Shown: positions 3,368-33,864, counted from the stretch's first letter. The stretch is DNA of 64,000 bases from Candidatus Aminicenantes bacterium (GCA_963843505.1 CAWJKR010000008.1:465922-529921); one strand, 5' to 3'. The notes: generated from the sequence alone by a model not told the origin. Numbers and translations: made by a program.

Positions 3368-3432
3368 GGCCGACTCCTTCTGTTTGACTTTGCGGAGGCC
3401 TTCTGATAATACCATAGAAAAGACGGACACCC

Positions 3433-3780
3433 ATGATCATCAAGACCCGCGAGATCGATAACATCGTCGTCTTCGACGTCGAGGGCGAGATCCGCCGCAC
3501 CGACACGGCCCAGGAGACCCTCCACAGCCTGGTCGAAGCCCAGCTCGACCGGGGCCGGAGGAACGTCCTGCTCAACCTCGGCGGCGTGGAGTTCATCGAC
3601 AGCTTCGGCGTGGGCCAGATCCTGGCCAGCTACATCTCGACCCAGAACCTCGGCGGCCGGCTCAAGCTCTGCCAGATCTCCCACAAGCTCCTCCTCATCT
3701 TCCAGATCACCATGCTGACCAAGGTCCTCGAGATCCACGAGGATTGCGACCGGGCCTTGGAGAGCTTCAGGAAGGCCTGA
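3433..3780 (+). CDS. STAS-domain anti-sigma-factor antagonist (SpoIIAA/RsbV-like).
   Basis: 115 aa. ...NVLLNLGGVEFIDSFGVGQILASY... is the STAS fold signature (conserved phosphorylatable Ser region DSFGVG). Confidence 0.8.
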   Translation: MIIKTREIDNIVVFDVEGEIRRTDTAQETLHSLVEAQLDRGRRNVLLNLGGVEFIDSFGVGQILASYISTQNLGGRLKLCQISHKLLLIFQITMLTKVLEIHEDCDRALESFRKA

Positions 3781-3808
3781 CCTTCCGGGGGCCTGAGGGG
3801 GGAGGGGA

Positions 3809-6365
3809 GTGCCCGACGGGCGGCTCGAAAGGATCCTGAGAGGCTTCGGGGACGTCCGCGGCCGCGAGGCCCGCGCCGCCCTGTCCCTGTCCGCGTACTT
3901 CTTCCTGATCACTTTCACCTTCTACATCATCAAGCCGGTCAAGGAGAGCTTCCTGATCGGCACCGCCCCGACCTGGTGGCCTTTCGCCGAGCTGGCCACG
4001 GCCCTGCTCATCGGCTTCGTCGTCGCCCTCAACGCCCGGCTCCTCGACCGCCTGCCCCGGCGGACCTACCTGACGGCCTCGCTCCTGTTCTTCATCGCCA
4101 GCCTCCTCGCCTTCTGGTTCGTCTTCGACGTCCACCAGAAGAGCCTGGTCATGACGCCCGTGGCCGACGCGTCCGGCATCTTCTTCTTCCTCTGGGCCCA
4201 GGTCATCATCCTGAACTCCTGGAACGTCGTCGTCATCGTCTTCTGCTTCTGGGCCGACATCTTCATCGCCCTGTCCGTGACCCAGTTCTGGATCTCCGTC
4301 AACGACATCTTCGACCCGCACCAGGCCAAGCGGCTGGTCGGGCTCTTCGTCGCCGGGGGCCTTTTCGGCGGCATCGCCGGCTCCGGCGCCGCCGCGCTGG
4401 TCACCTTCGCGCGCGTCATCCACGCCGAGGACCTTCTTCTCGTCTGCCCCGTCCTGCTCGTCCTGGCCCTCGTCGTCATCAACGTCGTCTACGCCGAGCA
4501 GCGCAAGATCGACGCCGCGGTCGGCGACGAGCGCATCGCGCGGGGCTCCAAAGTCGGGTATCTCGAGAGCTTCCGGACCGTCCGGCGGGACCGCTACCTC
4601 CGCCTGCTGGCGGCGATGCTGGCCTCGGCCATGGTCGCCGGCTCCCTCATCAACTACCAGTTCAAGACGGTCGTCAAGAGCATCGTCACCAACGATCAGC
4701 AGAGGACGGCGGCCATCGCCGGGTTCTTCCTGATCATCCTGGTCGTTTCGACGGTCTTCCACCTCCTCACGACCGGCCGCGTCCTCAGGACCTACGGCAT
4801 CCGCTGGGCCATCCTCGTCGCGCCGGCCCTGCTGCTGCTGGGATCGGCGGCGGTCTTCCTGATCCCCGCCGGGGCGATGCTCGCCTGGGCCTGTTTCGTC
4901 CGCGGCGGCGACAAGACCTTCGACAACACGCTCAGCCAGTCCGTCCGCGAGCTGCTGTATATCCCCGTGTCCGCGGACGTCAAATACCGGGCCAAGCTCT
5001 TCATCGACATGTTCGTCAGCAAGTTCGCCACGGGCCTCGGCGCCGCGCTCTTCCTTCTCCTCTACTCCACCCGGCAGTTCGCCTACCGCACCGACCAGCC
5101 GCTGGCCGTCGTCCGCGAGATCGGCCTCGCCGTCCTCGTCTTCCTGGCCCTCTGGCTTGTCCTGACCCGGCTCGTCTACCGGGAGTACCCGGCGGTCCTG
5201 AAGAAGGACCTCGGCCGGCTCTGGGTCCCCGGCCAGGACGTCGTCGACAAGCACATCGACGAGAAGCTCGTCCGCGAGGTCTTCGAGGCCATCCAGAGCC
5301 GCGAGCGCAGCACGACGCTCTACTACATGAACCTCTTCAACCTCGTCCGGTCGAACAACCTGACCCCCGAGCTCAAGGAGCTCCTGGGCATCAAGCGGGA
5401 CGAGATCAAGGCCCGGGCCATGGACGCCCTGTTCGACGTCGGCGGCGAGGCCTTCTTCCCCGGCCTCGACGAGGCCATCACCGACACGGAGTTCCAGAAG
5501 GAGATCGACCTCATCTTCCTGCTGCCCTCCTACCAGAAGATCATGGACGACCGCCTCGGCGGGATCGTCGGCCTCGCCCGTCCGAGGTCGACCGGATCGA
5601 GGCGGCCAACAGCATCTGCCGGATGGCGCCGAGCCCCTCGACGATCGAGGCCCTGAGCCCGCCTCCTCCAGGACCCCTCGCCCGACGTCGTCCTCTACGC
5701 CCTGAACAGCGCCTCCGTCCACCGGCGCCGCGAGCACCTGCCGCTCATCGTGAGGCAGCTGGCCAATCCCCGGACGGTCGCCGAGGCCCAGACGGCGCTG
5801 GCCGCCTACGGGCCCGATGTCCTCGGGCTTCATCGCCCCGGTCCTCCGCTCGGCCGACGAGCCCCTGGAGGTCCGCCGGGCCATCCCGGACGTTCTGGCC
5901 CGGATCGGCACCCAGAAGGCCGCCGACATCCTCGTCGCCGAGCTGGCCCGCCGCCGCGACGACATGGAGCAGCCGCTCGTCGACGCCCTCTACAAGCTCC
6001 GCGCCGCCCGGCCCGAGGTCCGCTTCCGGAGAAGGACGTCCGGCCGGAGCTCCTCCATCCTGATCCGTCAGGGCCTGCGACCTCGTCACGGACCCGCCCG
6101 GCTCCCCGGACGCGGCCAAGGCGCAGCTGGACGATCCGCGATCCGGCGCGTCTTCGACCTCCTGACGCTCCTCTATCCGCGCGAGGAGATCGTCAACGAC
6201 TACCAGAACATCCTCCAGGGGACCGCCAAGTCCGTCGACTATTCCCTCGAGCACCTCGACAACCTCCTCGACCGGGAGGTCAAGGAGCTCCTTTTCCCGC
6301 TCATCGAGGACCTGCCGGCCGACGAACGGTGCCTGCGCCTGAAAAAGGCGCTGAGGTTGAAATGA
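3809..6365 (+). CDS. TLC/NTT-family nucleotide (ATP:ADP) transporter with a C-terminal HEAT/PBS-lyase-like repeat extension; CDS read across at least 3 apparent frameshifts.
   Basis: N-terminus YIIKPVKESFLIGTAP..., multi-TM body with FWISVNDIF, matching the TLC ATP/ADP translocase pattern. After about 5570 the translation continues sensibly in other frames (SEVDRIEAANSICRMAPSPSTIEAL; LLQDPSPDVVLYALNSASV...; DVLARIGTQKAADILVAELARRRDD...LKKALRLK*), which are HEAT-like repeats. GTG start at 3809 preceded by GAGGGGGGAGGGG. Confidence 0.55.
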
Positions 6366-6403
6366 CGGGCCGCGTCATTTAGAATGAAGAGGAAGGGCGA
6401 GCC

Positions 6404-8088
6404 ATGGCCAACCTGTACATCTACCCGAAGACCGGAGAGCCCTCGACCTTCCCCCTGGGCCCGCGCCGCGTGACGATCGGCCGGTCGGCCGCGAACGACA
6501 TCGTCCTCTCCGACCAGTTCAGCTCGGGCTGCCACGCCGTCGTCGTCCCGACCGAGCGGGGCTACGCCCTGGTCGACCAGGGCAGCAAGAACGGGACCTT
6601 CGTCAACGGCCGCCGCGTCAGCGGCGAGATCGATCTCGCCCGCGGCGACGAGATCCTCATCGGCTCGACCCGCTTCTACTTCGACAAGGACTTCCAGCCC
6701 TCCGTCGAGACCGTCGAGGGCACGACCTTCACCCACAGCTCGAACACGATCATCCAGGTCAAGGACCTCCTCAAGAAGCCGCGGCCGGCCAGCGCGCCTC
6801 GTGAAGACCCCGGGCGGCGGGCTCGACCTCGAGCGCTTCCAGCAGGACCAGAAGATCATCGCCGGTCGTGGGCGAGGTCAGCCAGGCCCTCATCTATCAC
6901 ATGCCCCTCGACAAGCTCCTCGACCACATCATGGACGTCCTCATCCAGCACCTGCCCATGGACCGGGGCGTCCTCATGCTCAAGAACGAGGAGACCCAGG
7001 CCCTCGAGCCCAAGGTCGTCCGGGTCCAGAACGGCGCCCTGCGGACCCAGAGCATCTTCGTCAGCCAGACGATCGTCAAGACGGCCCTGGAGCGCAACTC
7101 GGCCATCCTCATCTCCGACATCCAGGCCGACGAGGGCCTGCGGGCCCAGATGAGCGTCGTCCAGGCCCAGATCCACTCGGCCATGTGCGTGCCGCTCTGG
7201 AACAACCAGGACATCATCGGCCTGATCTACTGCGACCGGGCCTCGCTCATCGAGCAGTTCACGGAGGACGACCTGCGCCTCCTGACGCTTCTCGCCAACC
7301 TGGCCGCCGTGAAGATCGAGAACGCCCGCCTCATCGACGAGTCCATCAAGGCCCTCCAGTACGAGCGGGAGATCGCCCTGGCCGTCCAGATCCAGAAGAA
7401 CTTCCTGCCCCGGGACGAGCCGGACTTCGCGCCCTACGAGATCAGCGGCAGCGCCCGGGCCTGCCGCCGCGTCGGCGGCGACTATTACGATTACATCGCC
7501 ATCGACAAGGACCGCCTGGCCGTCGTCATCGCCGACGTCTCGGGCGTCGGCGTCAGCGCCTCCCTGCTCATGGCCTCGCTGCGCGGGGCCCTCCACGAGA
7601 AATTCCCCGGGACCGTCGATCTCGGCGAGCTGGCCGCCAAGCTCAACGATTTCGTCTACGCGAGCTCGGACAGCCACCTCTTCATCTCGTTCTTCCTGGC
7701 CATCCTCGACCGGGCGCAGGGACGAGGTCTCCTTCATCAACGCCGGCCACAACCCGCCGCTCCTCCTGGGGCGCAAGGGGCCGGCCCGTCTCCTCGAGAG
7801 CACCGGGCCCTGCCTGGGGATGTTCCCGGCCCAGGCCTTCGCCGAGCAGACCGTCGCCCTCGGCGCCGGCGACATCCTCTGCCTTTACACCGACGGGATC
7901 GTCGAGAGCCGGAAGGGCGAGCACGACGAGTACGGGGTCGAGCGCCTGGCGGAGAAGGCTCAGGGAGCTCGGCCGGCCTGCCGGCCGCGGAGGTCCGGGA
8001 CAAGATCTTCGAGGACGTCCTCGCCTTCAGCGGCTGCGCCGAAGCGGGCGACGACATGACGCTCGTCGTCGTCAAGCGGAACCCGTGA
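6404..8088 (+). CDS. FHA-GAF-PP2C (SpoIIE/RsbU-type) serine phosphatase; 4 or more apparent frameshifts.
   Basis: N-terminal FHA: RVTIGRSAANDIVLSDQFSSGCHAVV...ALVDQGSKNGTFVNGRRV...GDEILIGSTRFYF. Middle GAF: MDRGVLMLKNEET...CVPLWNNQDIIGLIYCD. C-terminal PPM/SpoIIE: GGDYYDYIAIDKDRLAVVIADVSGVGVSASLLMA...ILCLYTDGIVESR...MTLVVVKRNP*. Segments lie in frames 2, 0, 1, 2, 1. Confidence 0.75.
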
Positions 8089-8531
8089 AGAACGCGGACG
8101 TGAGGCGCACCGGGACCGGCGAGGACGCCGCGGAGCTCCGCGTTTCCGCCGACCTCAAGGCCATCGACCGCGTCCGCGGCTTCCTCAGGGAGGCCATCGC
8201 CGACCTGCCCTTCGATGAGCAGGACCGGCTCAAGATCGAGCTGGCCCTTCACGAGATCTGCGTCAACATCGCCCGCTATGCCTATCCCCGCGGACGCAAG
8301 GGCGAGATGACCGTGCGCATCTGGCGGGACGGCGGTTCGCTGTTCATCGAGGTCCGGGACAAGGGCATCCCCTTCAATCCCGTCCGGAAGAAGAACCCCG
8401 ACCTCATGGTCAAGCTCCGGCGCGGCGTCCCCGGCGGGCTGGGCGTCTACTTTTTCAAGACGCTGATGGACGGCCTGTCCTACCGGCGGACGGGCGGACA
8501 GAACATCCTGACCGTCCGCAAGTCCCTCTGA
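8085..8531 (+). CDS. RsbW/SpoIIAB-like anti-sigma-factor serine kinase (HATPase_c).
   Basis: GTG start overlaps the phosphatase stop (GTGA). ...LHEICVNIARYAYPRGRKGEMTVRIW...IEVRDKGIPFNP...GGLGVYFFKTLMDGLSY... is the GHKL ATPase fold of partner-switching kinases. Confidence 0.7.
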   Translation: MKNADVRRTGTGEDAAELRVSADLKAIDRVRGFLREAIADLPFDEQDRLKIELALHEICVNIARYAYPRGRKGEMTVRIWRDGGSLFIEVRDKGIPFNPVRKKNPDLMVKLRRGVPGGLGVYFFKTLMDGLSYRRTGGQNILTVRKSL

Positions 8532-9437
8532 TCAGTAGAAGACCTTGTCTTCCCCGTTGGCCCTGACCAGCCGGTCGATCTCCGCCAGGATGAGGTCCCG
8601 CCGGATGAGGACGGCGCGGATCTCCTCGTCGGTGAGATAGCTCCCGACGACCGACTTGATCGCGGCGAAATCGAGGGACTTGACCTTGTCGACGACCGCC
8701 CGGGGCAGCTCGCTCATGAGCATCGGCCCCGCCGGGCTCTTGGCCGAATAGAGGAGTCCCTTGGTGAACTTGCCCGACGTCCGGAACGACCGGGAATGGT
8801 CGATGAGGATCATCCGCCAGTCGCGCGTGATCAGGATCTGGTTCGAGTGGCGGTCCTCGTTGGCGATGAGGTTGTCGAAGAGCCGCTGCAGATAGGTGGC
8901 CCGGTTCCAGCCGAGGACCTTGATCGGGGGCATCTTGATCCGCTTCTCGTCCCTGTCCCTGAGCGACATGGCAGTCGTCGATCCAGTATTGGCAGGAGCC
9001 GCGGTCGCCGCGAAAACGGCGCTCGACCGTGGGGGGGACCATGCCGAGCCCGAGGTACTTGTCGAGACGGTAGGCGGCGATCTCGTAGTGCCAGCCTTCC
9101 CAGTAGCCGCCCATGCGGCCCTCGGGGTTCTTCCAGAGGCCCCGATGTGTGACGCCGCCGAGCTTGAGCGTCAGGACCCAGGGCGAGGTCACGGCCTCGG
9201 CCCCGCTCAGCTGCTTGCTTCCGACTCGATCACGGCCGCCTTCTCGAGGAATTCCTCCCACTTGCTCGCGCTGGGCCAGCTCGTCGGGAAGGAACTGGAG
9301 CGGGGCGGGGGAGACCGCCGCGGGCGGGCCGGGCGAGGCCTTGTCCGCGGGGGCCCCGGCGTCGACGCAGGCCAGCAGGATCGCGCCGAGAGGCAGGAGG
9401 ACGGCCAGGCCGGTCGATAGGAAGCGCTTGTTCCCTC
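8532..9437 (-). CDS. Lipoprotein with a type II PI4-kinase-like (PI3/PI4K-superfamily) catalytic core, paralog A; one apparent frameshift.
   Basis: Lipobox LAVLLPLGAILLAC. EIAAYRLDKYLGLGMVPPTVER resembles the PI4KII segment ASLVDQKLELNIVPRTKVV. LIANEDRHSNQILITRDWRMILIDHSRSF matches the catalytic loop DRxxxN and the DFG-like IDxxxxF of PI3/PI4 kinases. C-terminal helix ...LTDEEIRAVLIRRDLILAEIDRLV shared with paralogs B and C. Start codon not resolved (no ATG after the upstream stop). Confidence 0.5.
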
Positions 9438-10275
9438 TCAATACAGCACCGCCTCTTCGCCCTGTTCCTCGACCATCCGGGCGATCTCCCGGAGGAGGAT
9501 GTCCCGGCGGGCGAGGACGGCCTTGATCTCCCTGTCGGTGAGCGTCTTCCCGACGGCCTCGCGGATGTTCTCGAAGGTCAGGGTCTTGATCCTGTCGACG
9601 AACCAGCGGGGCAGGCGGCGAAAGAGGAACGGCTCGCCCAGGGCCGACGTCTTGAGGCCGTCGCGGCCGAACATGAGACGCTCCGAGTACTCGCCGCCCG
9701 CACCGGAAGGACCGCGAGTGGTCGAAGACGATCGTCCGCCAGTCCTCGGTATAAAGGATGTTCTGCTGGGTCCGGTCCTCGTTGGCGATGAGGCTGTCCC
9801 AGGCCCGGGTCAGCCATTTCATCTTGTCGGTCCGGTCCTTGGCCTCGTCGGGGATGGGGATGCCCTGCTCGATGACCTTGAGCAGGCTGTACTTGCTCTC
9901 GGCCCAGAGGACCAGGGCGCCCGGCTTGCCCTGGAACTCGCGCTCGACGGCCGGGGGGACCATGTTCGTCCCGAGGAGCTTGTCCATGCCGTAGGCGGCG
10001 ATCTCGTATTGCCAGCCCTCGAGGTGGCCGCCTTGCAGGCCGCGGGGGTTCTTCCAGGCGGCCGCGAGCTCGACCCCGTCCTTGCGGAGATAGAGCTTGA
10101 GCGGTTTCGTCACGCCTTCGCCGATCTCCTCGAAGCGGACGATCTCGGCCGTGCGGAGGAACTCCTCCCGGGCCGGCCTCAGGGCGATCTCATCGGGCCG
10201 GAACTGGGCCCACGAGCCGGGCGGACCGGCCGCCGCGGCCAGGGCCAGGACGAAGAGGACGGCGACGCGTTTCAT
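9438..10275 (-). CDS. Secreted PI4KII-like kinase-fold protein, paralog B; one apparent frameshift.
   Basis: Signal peptide MKRVAVLFVLALAAAAGPPGSWAQ. WQYEIAAYGMDKLLGTNMVPPAVERE; LIANEDRTQQNILYTEDWRTIVFDHSRSF; C-terminus ...LTDREIKAVLARRDILLREIARMV. ATG at 10275 (complement of cat 10273-10275). Confidence 0.5.
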
Positions 10276-10334
10276 GACATCCTCCCCCGACGATGAACGG
10301 ACCGTTCCGATGATAGTCTCACGTCGGGACGATT

Positions 10335-11807
10335 TCAAGGCCGCCCGGCGGCCTCCTGAGCGACGGCCGCGTCGCACGCGGCCTTGCGCTTCCCGTAGGC
10401 CGGGATGATCTTGAGGCAGATGACGAGCAGGACCGCGATCACGGCGACGTTGAGGAGCGCGTAGCGCTCGATCCGCAGCCCCAGGAGCTGGGTCCCGGCC
10501 AGGACGGCCAGGGCCGAGAGGGTATCGCCGCCGCGGACGAAGAAGGTGTCGATGGCCGCCTTGGCCTTGTACTTCTCCTCCCTCTTGGTGACCAGGAACA
10601 GGGCCGCCTTGGTCGTGTTCTGCAGGGAGTAGTCCGTGCCGTTCTCCAGGGACTTGACCCAGCGGACGAGGACGAGCGTGGCCCCGAAGGAGATCAGGGC
10701 GTAGCCGCCGAGGGCCAGGATCGGCAGGAAGAGGAGGGCGCCTCCGACCCCGATCCACTTGAAGATCCTGGAGACGAACAAGAGCTGGATGATGAGCGCG
10801 ATGAGGTTCGTCAGGAACTGGTAGTTCATGAAGGCGTTGTGGATGGCCTTGCTCTCGGTCTGGCCCGGCAGGACCGGCGGCGCGGCGGGGGCGCTTCCCC
10901 GGCAGGCTCGCCGCCGCTTGGGCCGGGACCGCGGCCGCCTTCGCCTCGGTCGTCTCGATCGATCGATTGACCGTCACGGCGGTGATGATGAACTCCCCGG
11001 TCGCGTTGACGAAATTGTAGAGGCCGATCATGACCGCGATGAGCAGGAGATAGCGGCTCTTGAAGACCAGCCTGAAGCCGCCGCCGGCCTTGAGGGGCTG
11101 TTCCTGGACGAGGGGCTTTTCGGCCGGCCCCGGCCGGGCCCTCGCCCCGCTCCGCGCGGGACCTCCGGACGTCGCGGCCGTGGATCGTCCGGGCCAGGAC
11201 GATGCAGAGGAAGAGCACGATCCCGGCGATGAGCATGAGCTTGAACTCCCAGCTCCCGCCCAGGATGTCCCTCAGCCTGCGCATGAACGGCAGGGTCGCG
11301 ATGAGGCCGCCCAGGGTCGCGCCCAGCGCGACGAGCGGGAAGGTCCGCTTGCCGGCCTCGTCGGAATAGAGGTCGTTGGCGAAGCCCCAGAACTGGGCGA
11401 TGACGAAGTAGTTGAAGATGCCGACCCAGATGTAGAACAGGATCCCCATCGGCTTGACGGCCATGCCGCCGGCGTGCAGGACGTAGAAGATGACGAGGTT
11501 GGAGATGAAGAACGGTGGTCGTCCAGGTGATGAGGACGTGGCGGGGGACGCGGGAGGCCAGGCGGCTGAAGGCCTTGATGACGAAGACGAACAGGACGGC
11601 CTGCGCCCCGCCGAGGACGCTCTTGACGACGGGGGAGTCCTTGTCGACGAGCAGGAGCGATTCGCGCAGGGGTTTCAGGATGTAGTAGGCGAGGAGCAGG
11701 AGAAAGACGTTCAGGGCCAGGAGGAGGGCCTTGGGCGCTTCGCCGTGGCGGATGTCGGCGAACAGGCGGAGGAACCTGTAGCCGGGATTGTAGCGCGGTT
11801 CGGCCAT
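10335..11807 (-). CDS. TLC/NTT-family ATP:ADP translocase no. 2; 2 or more apparent frameshifts.
   Basis: N-terminus MAEPRYNPGYRFLRLF...LAYYILKPLRESLLLV (TLC N-terminal signature, compare YxILRDxKDxLV). Middle YIWVGIFNYFVIAQFWGFANDLYSDEAGKRTFPLVALGATLGG (compare the TLC consensus FWSFANDIY). C-terminal MNYQFLTNLIALIIQLLFVSRIFKWIG. ATG at 11807 with AAAGGGGA SD. Confidence 0.65.
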
Positions 11808-11827
11808 CGCTTCCCCTTTCCGCACGA

Positions 11828-13699
11828 TCAAAAGAGGACGTTCGCTTCGCCGAGGCTCTTGATCATCATCCGGAGACGCCTGACGATGAAGGTGCGCCGC
11901 GTATTGAGCGCCCCGATCTCCTCCGGTCCGAGATAGCGGCCGAGGTAGGCGGAGACGGTCCGGTCCTCCCAGCCGAGGAGCCGCCGGTAGAGGAGCCGGG
12001 AGCATCGCCGGATCTCGCAGCCGGGGGCGTCCCCCGTCTTCGGGGCGAAGGCCTCGGAGAAGTCGACGTGGTAGATCCGGCCGTCCTCGCTGACCAGCGT
12101 GTCCTTGTCGTTCCGGCAGTCGTCATAGACGAGGGCCTGGAACACGACGAGGTCGGCCAAGGCGCGTTCGAAGGCCTCGGGGTCAGGCGGGACGGCCTTC
12201 TTGTCCCGGAAATCGGCCAGGGACCGGGCGTCGGAGATGAAGGCCTGCAGGGCCCCCGGAACATCCTCGACGGTCCGCTCGACGATCGGCGGGACGTAGG
12301 AGAGGCCGAGGTACTTGTTCAGCGCGTAGGCGGCCAGATCGTACCGGAAGCTGTCGGCGAGCGGATCGGGCCGCCGCCGGTCGATGTACCTGAACAGGGC
12401 CTCGAGAACGGTCCCCTGCGATTCCAGAGCGTGAGCCGCCAGGCGTCGGTCCGGCCGCCGGGCCCGGGGCCGCGCCCGGTGACGGCCGCCGTCCGCAGGA
12501 ACGTCTCCATCTCCCGGGTCATCAGGGGCTTCGGCGGCGGGCGGCGGATGCCGCTGCGCGCGGCCACCTCCTCGGTCTCGCCCCAGACCCGGAATTCGCC
12601 GTGGTCGTAGATGAGGGCCGAGGGGACGCCGCCGTAGCTCCCGGAGGAAATGCCGGTGTCCATGATCCAGATCTTGTCCTGGAAGCGGGAGACGCTCCTG
12701 CGGTCGACGGTCGGGCTCGCGCCGCTCGGAAAAGCGGAAGTAATTGTGCCCGACGACGATGGCCCGGGCCCCGAGGTTGGCCAGGGTCCGGTCGATCTCG
12801 GCCTGGGCCGCGGCCTCGTTCTTGGTGGCCAGGCCCCGGAACCAGAGCGGGCTGTCCGGGTTGTAGACGAGCCGGGGGTGGAACGGCTTGCCGTATTGCC
12901 GGGGATTGCGCATGCGCCCCTGGAAGAACTCGAGCTCGGAGCGCATGACCTGGTTGATCTCGCGGATCGGCCACTTGGAGAAGGCCTCGCTGACGCCGCC
13001 GTGGGCATAGATGACGTCGTTGATCTTGATGACCGTGTTCTTCTTGATGAGCCAATCCCCGCAGGCCTCGTTGAAGCCCAGGACATAGGCGCGCATGGCG
13101 TCCGGGTCCTTGGCGGCCATGATCTTCCGCCAGAATTCGGCCAGGCGATCGTCGGCGTGGACGTCGAGGCCTTCGATCTCGGCCCGCTTCCTGTCCTCGT
13201 CGGAGAGCGTCTTGAGGTACTCGGCCTGCCTCTCGCGGCGGAAATCCTCGGGCAGGAACGAGACGAACTGCTCCACGGTGACGTAGTCCGGATAGTCGAG
13301 GGCGATGCCGGTGATGTTCATCTCCTCGTGGTTGCCGAGGAGCATGTGGACCATGCCGCCGGCGGCGGCCGCTTCCTTCTCGAGGCGCATGAGGAGCTCG
13401 AGGATCTCCTTGGCCCGGGGGCCCCGGTCCACGACGTCGCCGAGCTGGACGAGATGGGTCTTGCCGCCCGTCCAGTGGAGGTCGTCGTCGATGAGGCCGA
13501 CCTGCGGGTGGGCGAGGATGAAGACGAAGCGGTCGTAGTCGCCGTGGAGGTCGGCGACGGCCACGACCCGGTCGACGCCCGTCCATTCGAAGGGGATGTC
13601 GGCGGCGGGGGTGAGCCGGGGCAAGACGGCGAGGGCCAGAAGGAGGAGGAAGAACGGCCGGCGCCTCCGGCGAACCTCTCTGCGGCTGGTCATCGGCAT
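11828..13699 (-). CDS. Secreted fusion of a calcineurin-like metallophosphoesterase and a PI4KII-like kinase fold, paralog C; 1-2 frameshifts in the middle.
   Basis: N-terminus MPMTSRREVRRRRRPFFLLLLALAVLP (signal, possibly Tat-like RR). MPP motifs: VAVADLHGDYDRF, GDVVDRGP, GNHE, YAHGG. C-terminal half: FRYDLAAYALNKYLGLSYVPPIVERT; FQALVYDDCRNDKDTLVSEDGRIYHVDFSEAF (DxxxN loop plus DFS, a DFG-like motif); tail ...LGPEEIGALNTRRTFIVRRLRMMIKSLG paralogous to A and B. Confidence 0.6.
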   Translation of the reverse strand: MPMTSRREVRRRRRPFFLLLLALAVLPRLTPAADIPFEWTGVDRVVAVADLHGDYDRFVFILAHPQVGLIDDDLHWTGGKTHLVQLGDVVDRGPRAKEILELLMRLEKEAAAAGGMVHMLLGNHEEMNITGIALDYPDYVTVEQFVSFLPEDFRRERQAEYLKTLSDEDRKRAEIEGLDVHADDRLAEFWRKIMAAKDPDAMRAYVLGFNEACGDWLIKKNTVIKINDVIYAHGGVSEAFSKWPIREINQVMRSELEFFQGRMRNPRQYGKPFHPRLVYNPDSPLWFRGLATKNEAAAQAEIDRTLANLGARAIVVGHNYFRFSERREPDRRPQERLPLPGQDLDHGHRHFLRELRRRPLGPHLRPRRIPGLGRDRGGGRAQRHPPPAAEAPDDPGDGDVPADGGRHRARPRARRPDRRLAAHALESQGTVLEALFRYIDRRRPDPLADSFRYDLAAYALNKYLGLSYVPPIVERTVEDVPGALQAFISDARSLADFRDKKAVPPDPEAFERALADLVVFQALVYDDCRNDKDTLVSEDGRIYHVDFSEAFAPKTGDAPGCEIRRCSRLLYRRLLGWEDRTVSAYLGRYLGPEEIGALNTRRTFIVRRLRMMIKSLGEANVLF

Positions 13700-13816: not shown

Positions 13817-15186
13817 ATGAACGGACGAACGAGCTTCGCGGCCATCGTGACGGGGAGGCGGGCGCGGAAGGTCCTGCCCGTCCTCGGGCTGGCCCTGGCG
13901 CTGGGCCTCGCTCTCACGGGATGCGGCGGGCCCGAGCGGCCGGCCGCGCCGCGGCCGGCGGCCGTGGTCAAGGTCAAGCCCGGGGTCGAGGTCTTCCTCG
14001 AAAAGCACCTCGACCTGGTCAAGGGCAAGCGGGTCGGGCTCATCACCAACCCGACGGGCACGGACGCGGCGCTGCGGTCGACGATCGACCTCTTCCGGGC
14101 CGAATCCGGGGATCGATCTCGTCGCCCTCTACGGCCCCGAGCACGGCGTCCGCGGCAACGCCCAGGCCGGCGAATACGTGCCGTTCTACCTACGACGAGA
14201 AGTTCAAGCTCCCCGTGTTCAGCCTCTACGGGCAGTCCTTCAAGCCCGACCCGGGCATGATCAAGAACATCGACGAGTACATGCGCTCGTTCGACACGAA
14301 GGAGACCGGCAAGGTGCCGGAGGCGGCCATGGTCAAGGGGATCGACGTCCTCGTCTTCGACATCCAGGACGTCGGGACGCGCGTCTACACGTACATCGCG
14401 ACGATGGCCTACGCCATGCAGGCCGCGGCCGAAGCCGGCATCGATTTCATCGTCCTCGACAGGCCGGCGCCCGTCAACGGCGTCGACATGGAGGGGGCCA
14501 TCCTCGAGTACCCCGAGTTCAGCTCCTTCGTCGGGCTGTTCCCGATCCCCCTGAGGTTCGGCATGACGGTCGGCGAGCTGGCCAGGCTGTTCAACGACAA
14601 GTTCCTGGCCCACACGGCCAAGCTGACGGTCATCCCCATGGAAGGCTGGAAGCGGGCCATGTGGTTCGACGAGACCGGCCTGCCCTGGGTCATCCCGTCG
14701 CCGAACATGCCGACCCTCGACACGGCGACCGTCTACCCGGGGCTGGTGGCGATCGAGGGAACGAACATGTCCGAGGGCCGGGGGACGACGCGGCCGTTCG
14801 AGCAGTTCGGGGCGCCGTGGATCGACGGCAACGAGCTGGCGGCGCGGCTGAACGCCCTGGCCCTGCCGGGGGTCCGTTTCCGCGAGGCCTGGTTCACGCC
14901 CTGGTTCTCCAAGTTCCAGGGCGAGCTCTGCGGCGGCTGCCAGGTCCACGTGACCGACCGGGCGGCCTTCCGGTCCGTCGCCGCGGTCCTCCACATCGTC
15001 AAGACCGTGCGCGACATGTACCCGGACAAGTTCGCCTTCCACGCCGATTACTTCGACAAGGTCATGGGCACGGCCTCGGTCCGCAAGGCCCTCGAAGCGG
15101 GGTCCGACGCGGCGGCGATCCTGGGCAACATCCAGCCCGGCCTGGACGCCTTCGCCTCCCTCCGCAAGGCCTATCTGCTATATTAG
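13817..15186 (+). CDS. DUF1343-family lipoprotein (exo-beta-N-acetylmuramidase NamZ-like); 2 apparent frameshifts.
   Basis: Lipobox LALGLALTGC. GLITNPTGTDAALRSTIDLF...LYGPEHGVRGNAQAGEY...IDVLVFDIQDVGTRVYTYIATM... matches DUF1343. Indels at tccGGGGatc (14100) and ttctacCtacgac (14190). Confidence 0.65.
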
Positions 15187-15214: not shown

Positions 15215-16787
15215 ATGGCGATGAAGACTCCCCGATACGCCTTGGGCAACCCTCTGTCCCTCATCCTCGACAAGCCGGCCGCGGATTTCACCCGGGCGGA
15301 TCTCATCCGGGTCATCGAGGCGAAACAGATCGAGCGCGTCACCTTCCATTACCTGGCCATCGACGGGAAGCTCAAAGAGCTCACCGTTCCCGTGACGGAC
15401 CGCGCCCGCCTGGAATCCCTCCTGGCCGAAGGGGAGCGCGTCGACGGCTCGTCGCTCTTCAAGGGCATGGTCGACATGGCGCTTTCGGACCTCTACATCG
15501 TCCCCGTCTACCGTTCGGCCTTCTTCAACCCGTTCGACGAGGGCAGCCTCGATTTCGTCTGCCGCTACCTGACCCAGGACGGCACGCCCGCTCCCTTCAC
15601 CTGGGACGGCATCCTGGCCCGGGCCGCCGGCCTCTTCCGCGACCACGACGGGCCTCGAGCTCAAGGCCATGGGCGAGCTCGAGTTCTTCCTGGTCACGAC
15701 GCCCGCCGACAGGTCCTATCCGGTCGAGAACCACCGCGGCTACCACGGCTCGGCGCCGTTCGCCAAGAGCGGGCCGATCCTTCACGAGATGGTCGCCAAC
15801 ATCTCCCGCGTGACCGGGGCCGTCAAGTACGCCCACAGCGAGAACGGCGTCATCGAATCCGTCAAGAGCGATCTTCCGGAGATCGAGGGGCGCCTGGCCG
15901 AGCAGCTCGAGATCGAATTCCTGCCCCGGCCCATCGAGGAGACGGCCGACAACCTCGTCCTGGGCCGCTGGATCATCCGCAACACGGCCTTCCGTCACGG
16001 CGCCGTGGCCACGTTCACGCCCAAGCTCGAGGAAGGGGTCGCCGGCAGCGGCCTGCACTTCCACCTCGAGCTGGCCAAGAACGGGCGGAACATCATGCGC
16101 GGCGCGGACGGCAAGCTCTCCGTCGAGGCCCGCAAGCTCATCGGCGGCCTCTGCGACTACGCCGAATCCCTGACCGCCTTCGGCAACACCGTCTCCTCGG
16201 CCTACCTGCGGCTCGTCCCCAACCAGGAGGCCCCGACCCGGATCTGCTGGAGCGACCTCAACCGCAGCGCCCTCATCCGCGTCCCGCTCGGCTGGGCCGG
16301 CGCCTCCGGACTGGCCCGGCGCGTCAATCCCGCGGAAACGGACGATTTCGTCGACGAGAGCGGCGGCCGCCAGACCGTCGAGATCCGCAGCCCCGACGGC
16401 AGCGCCATCATCCACCTGACCCTGGCCGGCATCGCCATGGCCGCCAATTGGGCCTTCGGGAGCGACAAATCCCTCTTCAAGGACTCGGCGCCCCTCGAGC
16501 TGGCCGACAGCCTCTACGTCAAGGGCAACATCTTCGCCGACAAGGAGCTGCTCAAGCGCCTGCCCGTCCTGCCCGCGAGCTGCGTCGAATCGAGCCGGGT
16601 CCTTCTCGAGAAGCGGGACCTCTACGAGCGCGACGGCGTCTTCCCGCCGAGCGTCATCGATTACATCGCCCGAACGCTCCAGGCCGAGGACGACGAGTTC
16701 ATGAACAAGAGGCTGGCCGACCTGCCGGCCCACGACCGGCTCCACGAGATCCGCCAGATCATGCACAAGGACCTGCACAAGCACTGA
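15215..16787 (+). CDS. Glutamine synthetase family protein (GS catalytic domain); one frameshift near 15650.
   Basis: ...GSGLHFHLELAKNGRN...RLVPNQEAPTRICWSDLNRSALIRVP... Gln-synt_C-type motifs. AGGAGA SD before ATG 15215. Confidence 0.6.
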
Positions 16788-16788
16788 G

Positions 16789-17856
16789 ATGAGCGCGAAA
16801 CCGGACGCCATGACCTCGCGGGAGCGCTGGCTGGCCCTCTTCGCCCGCCAGAAGCCCGACCGCGTCCCGACCGACTACTGGGCGACGCCCGAGTTCGACC
16901 GCAAGCTGATGAAGCGCCTCGGCTGCCGGCACCCGCCGCCGGATGCTCGACACGCTCGGCGTCGACTACGAGGTCCATCTCGAGCCCCGCTACGCGGGCC
17001 CGCGCCGGCCCCGCATGCAGGACGAGTTCGGCCGCCGCTTCCGGAGCGTCGATTACGGGACCGGCTCCTACCGCGAGTGCATCCACTTTCCGCTGGCCGG
17101 CTTCAAGTCCGTCGCCGAGATCGAGAAGAATTACGTCTGGCCCACGGCCGACTGGTGGGACTTCACGGACATCCCGGCCCAGGCCCGCCGGCAACGAGAC
17201 CCATCCCATCCGCGGCGGCGGCTCGGAGCCCTTCCTCATCTACAAGGAGCTCCGCGGCATGGAGCAGGCCTTCGTCGACCTCGTCGAGAACCCCGAGATC
17301 GTCCATTACTGCCTGGGCAAGCTCTTCGACCTGGCCTACGAGAACGCGCGTCCGGATCTACGAGGCCATCCCGGGCCGCGTGGACATCTCCTACGTCGCC
17401 GAGGACATGGGCGGCCAGACCGACCTGATGATCTCGGTCCGCCACATCCGCGAGTTCCTCCTGCCCGGCATGAAGCGGATGATCGATCTCGCCCACCAGG
17501 CCGGCGCCCACGCCTTCCACCACAACGACGGCAGCTGCTGGCGCATCGTCCCCGACATGATCGGCCTCGGCATCGATCTCCTGAACCCGCTCCAGTGGCG
17601 CTGCCCGGGCATGGAGCGCGAGCGGCTCAAGACGGAATTCGGCCCCCACGTCGTCCTCCACGGCGGCATGGACAACCAGTACACGCTGCCGTTCGGGACG
17701 GTCGACGACGTCCGGCGCGAGGTCGAGGACAACCTGCGCATCCTCGGCGCCGGCGGCGGCTACATCCTCGCCCCCTGCCACAACATCCAGGCGATCACGC
17801 CGGTCGAGAACGTCCTGGCCATGTACGAGGCCGCCCGAGAGTTGGGCAGAACCTAG
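16789..17856 (+). CDS. Uroporphyrinogen decarboxylase (URO-D) family protein (MtaA/CmuA-like methyltransferase fold); 3 or more frameshifts.
   Basis: ...VAEDMGGQTDLMISVRHIREFLLPGMKRMIDLAHQAGAHAFHHNDGSCWRIVPDMIGLGIDLLNPLQW...YILAPCHNIQAITPVENV... ATG at 16789 overlaps the upstream stop (TGAGATG). Confidence 0.6.
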   Translation: MSAKPDAMTSRERWLALFARQKPDRVPTDYWATPEFDRKLMKRLGCRHPPPDARHARRRLRGPSRAPLRGPAPAPHAGRVRPPLPERRLRDRLLPRVHPLSAGRLQVRRRDREELRLAHGRLVGLHGHPGPGPPATRPIPSAAAARSPSSSTRSSAAWSRPSSTSSRTPRSSITAWASSSTWPTRTRVRIYEAIPGRVDISYVAEDMGGQTDLMISVRHIREFLLPGMKRMIDLAHQAGAHAFHHNDGSCWRIVPDMIGLGIDLLNPLQWRCPGMERERLKTEFGPHVVLHGGMDNQYTLPFGTVDDVRREVEDNLRILGAGGGYILAPCHNIQAITPVENVLAMYEAARELGRT

Positions 17857-33769: not shown

Positions 33770-33864
33770 TGGCGGGAAGGTGTGGGAGTCGAACCCACCC
33801 GGGACGTCTATAGCCCCATACCGGATTTGAAGTCCGGAAGGATCACCGGATCCTTCACCCTCCC
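33770..33864 (-). tRNA. selC: tRNA-Sec (selenocysteine tRNA, anticodon UCA), 95 nt including encoded CCA.
   Basis: Minus-strand read: GGGAGGGT-GAAGGATCCGGTGATCCTTC-CGGACTTCAAATCCGG-TATGGGGCTATAGACGTCCC-GGGTGGGTTCGACTCCCAC-ACCTTCCC-G-CCA. It has an 8-bp acceptor stem with one G-U pair, an extended D-stem, anticodon loop CTTCAAA (UCA), a long variable arm, and the T-arm GGTTCGACTCC. Segment for segment it parallels E. coli selC (CCGGTGA / GGACTTCAAATCC / GGTCCCGGG..GGTTCGACTCC). Confidence 0.8.

Follow-up and report, generated by a model that had tools for sequence, protein, structure and literature searches.

The periplasm is, by textbook account, a compartment that lacks ATP, so that ATP-dependent kinases are not active there, and the periplasmic phosphotransfers known to us use lipid donors. 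How could a bacterium then make use of proteins with a kinase fold that are exported from the cytoplasm? This question is raised by a gene cluster in a DNA stretch of 64,000 nucleotides from an uncultured sediment bacterium of Candidatus Aminicenantes (GCA_963843505.1, CAWJKR010000008.1:465922-529921; 67% GC), hereafter called the window, the nearest relatives of which are metagenome-assembled genomes (MAGs) of Candidatus Aminicenantes. Four genes are located in the same direction on the minus strand, from position 13699 to 8532: gene A for a phosphatase fused to a kinase-like domain, a gene for a transporter of the TLC/NTT family, and genes B and C for two further kinase-like proteins (Table 1). 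The original prediction had described this set as four nearly abutting genes, in which three secreted paralogues resembling type II phosphatidylinositol 4-kinases (PI4KII) accompany an ATP:ADP translocase. The arrangement is indeed present, with the correction that gene C starts with TTG at position 9441 rather than at 9437.

We propose that the cluster encodes a module for phosphorylation and dephosphorylation outside the cytoplasmic membrane, which would be supplied with ATP by the transporter, and we give this proposal an even chance of being correct. It builds on the structure of the genes and their conserved linkage, on the fold of the shared domain with its conserved catalytic residues, and on the export signals.

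The three kinase-like domains are paralogous, as originally predicted. Using an intact B protein as the query, tblastn matched the C region with an E-value of 2e-50 and the A region with 2.5e-15, where the C-terminal 235 residues of A correspond to B and C. Common to all three domains are the segment EIAAY..LDK.LG..VPP.VER, the motif (I/V)D(H/F)S..F and a C-terminal helix that ends in GE..VL(Y/F). The input for structure modelling was a shallow alignment of 39 rows, and the AlphaFold2 (AF2) model of C had a predicted local distance difference test score (pLDDT) of 84.5 and a predicted template modelling score (pTM) of 0.79. In the fold comparison, the figures were 19.8 for Fam20C, 19.7 for a Fam20B-type kinase, 18.7 for PI4KIIalpha, 18.6 for C. 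elegans Fam20, 16.0 for H. pylori CtkA, 13.5 for actin-fragmin kinase, about 12 for HipA and 12.0 for CotH. Foldseek agreed with this ranking and matched Fam20C with an E-value of 3e-9; both a Fam20-type atypical kinase fold and a PI4KII-like fold were thus recognized. A profile of the three paralogue groups, searched against PDB sequences, matched FAM20A (E 1e-7), FAM20C (3e-5 and 1e-4) and the xylosylkinase Fam20B (1e-3), as compared to an E-value of 0.94 for PI4KIIbeta. The region aligned to the FAM20 proteins spans the EIAA(F/Y).LD..L....VPP segment, the catalytic loop, the DFG-equivalent motif and the C-terminal helix. Judged by sequence and by modelled structure, the nearest family is the Fam20 group of secretory-pathway kinases, with PI4KII in second place. 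The PI4KII-like fold of the original prediction was structurally right, and its label of a type II PI4-kinase-like lipid kinase is better replaced by that of a Fam20-like secretory-pathway kinase fold.

The domain remains distant from each of these families. Scans against Pfam and NCBIfam gave sub-threshold matches only, to PI3_PI4_kinase, HipA_2, Fam20C, FAM198 and TIGR03843. Membership was rejected for Fam20C (PF06702; 11.4 against 26.8 bits for C, with B not listed), for PI3_PI4_kinase (PF00454; 15.3 against 27.1 bits for C), for HipA_2 (PF20613; score below the gathering threshold) and for the SCO1664 family TIGR03843, where 44.7, 24.1 and 23.5 bits against the required 172.4 indicate distant superfamily similarity only. 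Besides falling below the Fam20C threshold, the proteins differ from the Fam20 kinases in length (approximately 250 residues in the mature form, as compared to approximately 400), in being bacterial, one of them a predicted lipoprotein, in the fusion of the presumed pseudokinase to a phosphatase and in being encoded together with a nucleotide transporter. The sequence similarity to PI4KIIalpha and PI4KIIbeta is marginal; these are palmitoylated lipid kinases of the cytosolic membrane face, whereas the export signals described below argue against a cytosolic location of the proteins studied here.

Protein B carries the complete catalytic set, with K in AAWKN, E in YEIAAY, the loop NEDRTQQN with the canonical D...N spacing and the motif FDHSRSF, and C carries a variant of this set, NEDRHSNQ and IDHSRSF. 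The loops and DFG-equivalent motifs of B and C align to GNMDRHHYE and LDNGRGF of Fam20, and the catalytic Asp together with the metal-binding Asp is present in both proteins, unlike in A. A DRxxxN motif had been claimed for all three paralogues; it was found in B (DRTQQN), whereas the corresponding residues are DRHSNQ in C and CRNDKD in A.

An exhaustive profile search identified 5,128 clusters at 50% identity with an E-value of at most 1e-3, including 783 with at most 1e-30. Catalytic and export features were counted in the 150 best representatives at 50% identity. Of the catalytic positions, D213 was conserved in 145 representatives, K/R103 in 119, R196 in 118, E119 in 112, D195 in 111 and N200 in 107, and a signal-like N-terminus was found in 124. 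Thus, profile and structure searches place the domain in a kinase fold in which Asp and Asn are conserved in most of the representatives, and not in a non-kinase family. The chief signature outside Aminicenantes is N.DRN.GN.L followed by IDH(S/T)R(A/S)F. The 27 representatives of at least 400 residues include several Metallophos::kinase-like fusions with an intact catalytic loop, and a fusion of a Shelph phosphatase to a kinase-like domain recurs elsewhere, for example in a protein from a Myxococcota MAG (P0301), again with an intact loop. Almost no family member carries a Pfam domain, a precomputed PF06702 match exists for few, and the source names are "hypothetical protein" or "metallophosphoesterase" throughout. 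By these sequence criteria, the kinase-like family is large, has a signal peptide in nearly all cases and lacks a Pfam family. One member of 671 residues (P0242) contains two tandem kinase-like domains and is among the few to exceed the Pfam gathering scores of HipA_2 (at 29.8 bits) as well as of Fam20C (at 29.4 bits).

Gene A, for which 803 homologues were found, combines a calcineurin-like phosphoesterase with the kinase-like domain, as had been predicted. The phosphatase domain has a Pfam Metallophos match (1.4e-9) and is most clearly related to Shewanella psychrophilic phosphatase I (PPI), the cold-active protein-tyrosine phosphatase (CAPTPase; 1v73, phmmer E 2.7e-32), with similar results for 2z72 and 2zbm. 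The Shelph branch of the PPP phosphatases was founded on these Shewanella enzymes (PMC535813). The metal-binding motifs (A)DLHGD, GDVVDRG and GNHE, which correspond to GDxHG, GDxxDRG and GNHE of the PPP family, are invariant in 38 orthologues. As compared to other Shelphs (Shewanella PPI/CAPTPase, plant SLP1/2 and apicomplexan SHLP/Shelph), the domain holds an insert of approximately 70 residues and is extended by the C-terminal kinase-like domain; a cluster of a Shelph with kinase and transporter genes has not been reported (PMC535813). In the catalytic loop of the kinase-like domain, Cys replaces the catalytic Asp and Asp replaces the Asn. This Cys is found in each of 38 close orthologues; in more distant orthologues of A the loop varies and the DFG-equivalent motif stays. 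Because the catalytic Asp and Asn have been lost, this domain is most readily taken for a pseudokinase, joined to an active phosphatase, and not for a third kinase. The full-length AF2 model of A had an overall pLDDT of 67.5 (80–94 in the phosphatase part and 35–75 in the kinase-like domain); owing to this low confidence it was left out of the fold searches, and the pseudokinase assignment comes from the alignments alone.

The same exported enzymes and nucleotide supply could also serve another chemistry, such as lipid or glycan phosphorylation or a different nucleotide-dependent transfer. Proteins of related folds provide precedents: PI4KII phosphorylates lipids, Fam20B phosphorylates xylose, SelO catalyzes AMPylation and SidJ glutamylation. 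We nevertheless consider this alternative unlikely, since the constant partner of the kinase-like genes is a PPP phosphatase most closely related, among characterised enzymes, to one that acts on phosphotyrosine (PMC535813), and since the conserved Asp/Asn/Asp triad fits ordinary phosphotransfer. Given a PPP phosphatase as the partner, protein substrates are favoured.

The assignment of the second gene to the TLC/NTT family was confirmed. The repaired protein matches Pfam TLC (PF03219; TC 2.A.12) with an E-value of 2.8e-15 and 56.6 bits against a cut-off of 21, and the same domain was recorded for the intact orthologues of 476–487 residues on two contigs of a related metagenome (L001 and L002). 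Residues 124–471 align with the solved ADP,ATP carrier 9j3n (E 8.7e-6), and the signature motifs FWGFAN, (G)KR and Y.L...TK...K.KAAID are kept. A crude hydropathy scan indicated 9–12 hydrophobic segments, where approximately 12 transmembrane helices are expected for TLC/NTT proteins. The score of 52.3 bits did not reach the cut-off of 387.2 for the NTP/NDP exchange transporters of NCBIfam (TIGR00769). To our knowledge, TLC/NTT is the sole transporter family for ATP/ADP exchange. All its characterised members carry nucleotides, and those of class I are ATP/ADP antiporters, the direction of which is set by the gradients (PMC5381601). The gene shares the TLC domain, the homology to 9j3n and the FWGFAN and KxKAAID motifs with the transporters of Chlamydia, Rickettsia and plastids. 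It differs in being very divergent, in belonging to a free-living organism and in the proposed direction, ATP out and ADP in, which is opposite to that in the parasites.

Every NTT characterised to date takes up nucleotides into its own cell (PMC5381601), and one may ask whether the cluster scavenges nucleotides or phosphate. The phosphoesterase would then process extracellular nucleotides or fragments of nucleic acids, the transporter would import nucleotides in the manner of the parasite NTTs, and the kinase-like proteins would merely bind nucleotides. Metallophosphoesterases do include nucleotidases, the bacterial PPPs include diadenosine tetraphosphatases (PMC535813), and the phosphatase domain of A has weak matches to ApaH/PrpE. 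These matches have E-values of at least 1e-4, whereas the match to the Shelph type is specific (E 3e-32) and the domain is not that of a 5'-nucleotidase or ApaH. Dephosphorylation of nucleotides would moreover destroy the substrate of the transporter, a mere binding protein would have no reason to keep the catalytic Asp, the Asn and the metal-binding Asp, and three paralogues with a kinase fold are hard to account for as binding proteins. Scavenging is therefore an explanation that we rate as quite improbable.

Export signals were predicted for all three paralogues, and are present. Signal peptides and lipoboxes were judged by simple heuristic rules, not by SignalP. In A-type orthologues, a hydrophobic h-region is present in 118 of 119 sequences. 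Export of A by the Tat pathway as a general feature was rejected, since the RRx## motif occurs in only 23 of the 119. The signal peptide of B (10275-10207) is followed in the orthologues by a conserved mature N-terminus, QF.PEEIA, after the cleavage site. In C, a lipobox, LLAC, ends at about position 9367; among C-type orthologues, 117 of 120 have the hydrophobic h-region and 91 of 120 the lipobox. Because the signals are conserved across orthologues, those of A, B and C are not artefacts of wrongly chosen start codons.

These signals also bear on whether the kinase-like proteins might be secreted effectors or toxins that act in other cells, where ATP would be at hand, in the manner of H. pylori CtkA or the HipA-type toxins, with the transporter unrelated or in another role. 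Plain Sec and lipoprotein signals target proteins to the periplasm or the outer membrane and not to target cells, and no secretion-system, immunity or antitoxin genes were found nearby in the window or in L001 and L002. The cluster is also conserved vertically, as a core syntenic locus of an entire class, and effectors would not account for its recurrent linkage to TLC and Shelph genes. Among the bacterial atypical kinases of this fold group, CtkA works in host cells, the spore-coat kinase CotH in the mother cell and HipA in the cytoplasm, and none of the three is known to be exported by Sec or as a lipoprotein in company with a phosphatase and a nucleotide transporter. We find the effector explanation very hard to credit.

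The linkage between the transporter and kinase-like genes is conserved, which supports the proposed module. The scan of genome contigs used peptide patterns specific to C-type proteins and covers Aminicenantes loci only. Among 80 Aminicenantia genome loci, the full order of A, NTT, B and C was found in 49, down to protein identities of 36–58%, and most of the remaining loci are cut by contig ends. The core also stays together where the flanks differ, as in the Saccharicenans loci L055, L058 and L075. Variants include a duplicated gene B, an inserted lipoprotein gene on the opposite strand, and loci in which the short NTT is missing and a TLC gene with HEAT repeats (TLC-HEAT) lies within 5 kb. 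The inserted lipoprotein gene, encoding 277–281 residues, lies between the transporter gene and B (L061, 3873-4706, minus strand; L066, 5056-5901, minus strand).

A second and more telling scan, of metagenomes, was seeded with distant members from outside Aminicenantes and yielded 25 loci of at least 6 kb. A TLC-family gene adjoins a kinase-like gene in 11 of these, and in six shorter loci in addition. TLC genes are rare in bacterial genomes, and 11 of 25 is therefore far above chance. Gene orders and strands vary among the distant loci, and many of the genes lie on the same strand with gaps of 0–60 nt or overlaps. In the Pfam-annotated loci L168 (1-8945) and L171 (1-8948), two TLC-HEAT genes are followed by genes for a cNMP_binding protein, a Metallophos::kinase-like protein (the Shelph fusion) and a kinase-like protein. 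A gene for a UbiD-family decarboxylase comes next in both. In L165, a Metallophos::kinase-like gene is followed by TLC-HEAT and a convergent kinase-like gene. A gene for a cNMP-binding protein was also found in L095, L096, L111 and L118, and L120, L131 and L141 encode this protein as a fusion with the transporter. The contigs range from 42 to 72% GC, which indicates that several lineages are involved. These distant clusters are exactly the NTT-HEAT and cNBD operon of Major et al. (PMC5381601), who noted NTT-HEAT(-cNBD) operons in free-living bacteria without an assigned function and made no mention of kinase or phosphatase neighbours (Major et al. 2017). The linkage is frequent and not obligatory: L163 and L169 have a Metallophos neighbour only, and L164, L170, L172 and L173 have neither partner. 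In L173, a stand-alone member (5793-6653) is flanked by ruvB and ruvA, and neither a TLC nor a Metallophos gene is close by, so not every family member belongs to a transporter cluster. The adjacency in relatives that the original prediction implied was thus observed both within and outside Aminicenantia.

Inherited synteny without functional meaning, with an independent TLC gene, is the explanation to which we attach the least credence: the wider Aminicenantia neighbourhood (NamZ, GlnA and partner-switch genes) is also syntenic, which makes conservation within the class weak evidence by itself, but the core persists amid differing flanks and the association reappears with other gene orders, strands, transporter architectures and base compositions.

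In the phosphorylation module that we propose, B, as a soluble periplasmic protein exported by Sec, and C, as a lipoprotein, would be the kinases, with a fold of the Fam20/PI4KII type. The Shelph-type phosphoprotein phosphatase of A would reverse the modification. Its pseudokinase domain may serve in docking or substrate recognition, or may act on B and C allosterically, by analogy to the pseudokinase Fam20A, which activates Fam20C. The transporter would swap cytoplasmic ATP for periplasmic ADP and so feed the kinases on demand. Proteins exported by Sec traverse the membrane unfolded, and ATP is not otherwise present in the periplasm. The role of an ATP feeder is suggested because exported phosphotransfer enzymes need a nucleotide in such a compartment, because the transporter gene is the sole recurrent gene besides that of the phosphatase, and because the characterised members of its family all carry nucleotides. 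With an antiporter, ATP would leave the cytoplasm only in return for external ADP, which would limit the loss.

Several points weigh against this proposal. The transporter is remote from the characterised NTTs (E about 1e-5 to 9j3n), which makes ATP/ADP exchange an extrapolation. In about half of the distant homologues, no TLC gene was found within 8 kb, and in a few Aminicenantes loci the short NTT is absent, with TLC-HEAT still near. In 62 of the 150 representatives, the alignment shows R, Q or H in place of the ATP-binding Lys. In the loop of C (DRHSNQ), the Asn stands one position early and Gln occupies the canonical Asn position. Periplasmic ATP could leak through porins, and no gene for a candidate substrate is conserved within the cluster. 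Finally, that B and C act as kinases, what they act on, and what the transporter carries in which direction are inferences. The ATP-fed extracytoplasmic system of the original prediction is thus supported in part, by adjacency, export and fold, and weakened by the remoteness of the transporter and by the distant members that lack a TLC neighbour, in addition to the changed family label and the reading of A as a pseudokinase.

The closest analogy is phosphorylation in the lumen of the endoplasmic reticulum (ER) and Golgi, which is supplied by an ATP/ADP exchanger. The logic would be the same, with an antiporter that feeds ATP to Fam20-fold kinases in an exoplasmic compartment devoid of it. The systems differ in that the transporters are unrelated (SLC35-type as compared to TLC) and in the compartment, here the periplasm, and the bacterial side is known from sequence only. 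A full-text literature search, of incomplete coverage, returned no description of bacterial Fam20-like proteins, of periplasmic kinases with an ATP supply or of the function of NTT-HEAT proteins. The folds are each known from before, which, as far as this search reached, does not hold for their combination, for the compartment or for the supply of ATP that they imply.

Table 1. Positions of the features discussed, counted from the first nucleotide of the window.
Feature	Position	Strand	Size	Evidence	Description
Gene A	11828..13699	(-)	~621 aa, repaired	Open reading frame and frame analysis	Signal peptide, Shelph-type PPP phosphatase and C-terminal Fam20-like pseudokinase domain (predicted)
Signal peptide of A	13601..13699	(-)			MPMTSRREVRRRRRPFFLLLLALAVLPRLTPAA followed by D; basic n-region, hydrophobic core, AxA-like cleavage site
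Shelph PPP phosphatase domain of A	12550..13600	(-)			Motifs DLHGD, GDVVDRG and GNHE intact
Kinase-like domain of A	11831..12534	(-)		Alignments	Predicted catalytically dead: DDCRNDKD instead of NEDRxxxN; VDFSEAF kept
TLC/NTT-family transporter	10335..11807	(-)	~489 aa, repaired	Pfam TLC match	HEAT domain absent
Gene B	9438..10275	(-)	278 aa		Exported soluble Fam20-like kinase, predicted
Gene C	8532..9441	(-)	301 aa		Fam20-like kinase lipoprotein, predicted
Sigma-70-like promoter match	10310..10338	(-)		Consensus scan only	TTGAAA-17-TATCAT (10/12), in the NTT-B spacer
Frameshifts in gene A	12727, 12428
Frameshifts in NTT gene	11513, 11122, 10902
Frameshift in gene B	9699
Frameshifts in gene C	9264, 9220, 8973
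TLC transporter fused to HEAT repeats	3809..6365	(+)	~848 aa	tblastn mapping; Pfam TLC and HEAT_2 in L001 and L002; own hidden Markov model, 1e-185
Partner-switching set around TLC-HEAT	3430..8531	(+)		tblastn, Pfam
STAS	3430-3780	(+)
FHA-GAF-SpoIIE phosphatase	6404-8088	(+)
RsbW-like HATPase_c_2	8100-8531	(+)

The genes of the cluster are tightly packed. The spacers measure 20 nt between A and NTT and 59 nt between NTT and B, and genes B and C share 4 nt, TTGA, in which the start codon of C and the stop codon of B overlap. The consensus scan for promoters found 2 sites as compared to 0.2 expected, which is not functional evidence; the match in the NTT-B spacer could represent an internal promoter from which B and C are transcribed separately from A and NTT. 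At positions 8529-8534, the stop codons of gene C and of the convergent RsbW-like HATPase_c_2 gene abut without any intergenic base, in the palindrome TGATCA, which leaves the two operons no space for an intervening terminator.

Frameshift-aware alignment to intact orthologues showed that the four genes are broken in the window by nine indels of one or two bases. The orthologous operons in L001 and L002 are intact, with products of 619–620, 476–487, 278 and 301–302 residues, and orthologues with 78–96% identity are unbroken. Breaks of the same kind affect genes throughout the window, such as the neighbouring ones for the SpoIIE phosphatase, NamZ, glutamine synthetase and URO-D (6404-8088, 13817-15186, 15215-16787 and 16810-17493), at a density of approximately one frameshift per 0.6 kb, similar to that in the operon. 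Because the housekeeping neighbours are equally broken and the orthologues intact, the nine indels are taken to be assembly errors, and decay of the operon into pseudogenes was rejected. The pattern is typical of an unpolished long-read assembly, and the closest intact relatives are nanopore-based MAGs (MFD isolates). Elsewhere in the window, a selenocysteine tRNA was identified on the minus strand at 33770-33864 (ARAGORN; Rfam tRNA-Sec, 80.8 bits), within a stretch of lower GC content from 32 to 40 kb (0.59–0.63, as compared to 0.67 elsewhere), and the region from 50 to 54 kb has an unusually high GC content of 0.73.

A second transporter gene, TLC-HEAT, lies just downstream of the operon on the plus strand and was seen in more than 30 Aminicenantes loci. 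It probably belongs to the same functional neighbourhood as the operon, since in other phyla transporters of its class are partners of genes for Shelphs and kinase-like proteins. It is surrounded by genes for a partner-switching set with a STAS protein, a SpoIIE phosphatase and an RsbW-like protein, which are possible cytoplasmic regulators; the arrangement, which is conserved in Aminicenantes, suggests that the transporter is under cytoplasmic regulatory control. None of the three adjoins TLC-HEAT in the distant loci, and they were rejected as general companions of this gene and are specific to Aminicenantes.

A more far-reaching version of the proposal, which we offer tentatively and think unlikely, is that the cluster serves as a device for inside-out signalling and represents a bacterial forerunner of eukaryotic secretory-pathway phosphorylation. 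Cytoplasmic sensors would gate the TLC(-HEAT) exchanger and thereby set the periplasmic ATP level and the phosphorylation of envelope proteins. The sensor might be the cNMP-binding protein in most lineages and the partner switch of STAS, RsbW-like and FHA-GAF-SpoIIE proteins in Aminicenantes, with the exported Fam20-like kinases writing the modification and the exported Shelph erasing it. In eukaryotes, Fam20 kinases and Shelph phosphatases both reside in the ER and Golgi, and a periplasmic module of this kind could therefore be the ancestor of both.

The cluster is a candidate for regulated phosphorylation in the cell envelope, as it recurs across lineages with exported kinases whose catalytic residues are intact, an exported protein phosphatase and a TLC transporter. 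It defines a large protein family, of more than 5,000 clusters at 50% identity, that has been without annotation or a Pfam model. If the proposal is correct, it would provide a role for the widespread NTT-HEAT(-cNBD) transporters of free-living bacteria, a question open since 2017, and the Fam20 kinases of the secretory pathway would have a prokaryotic relative.

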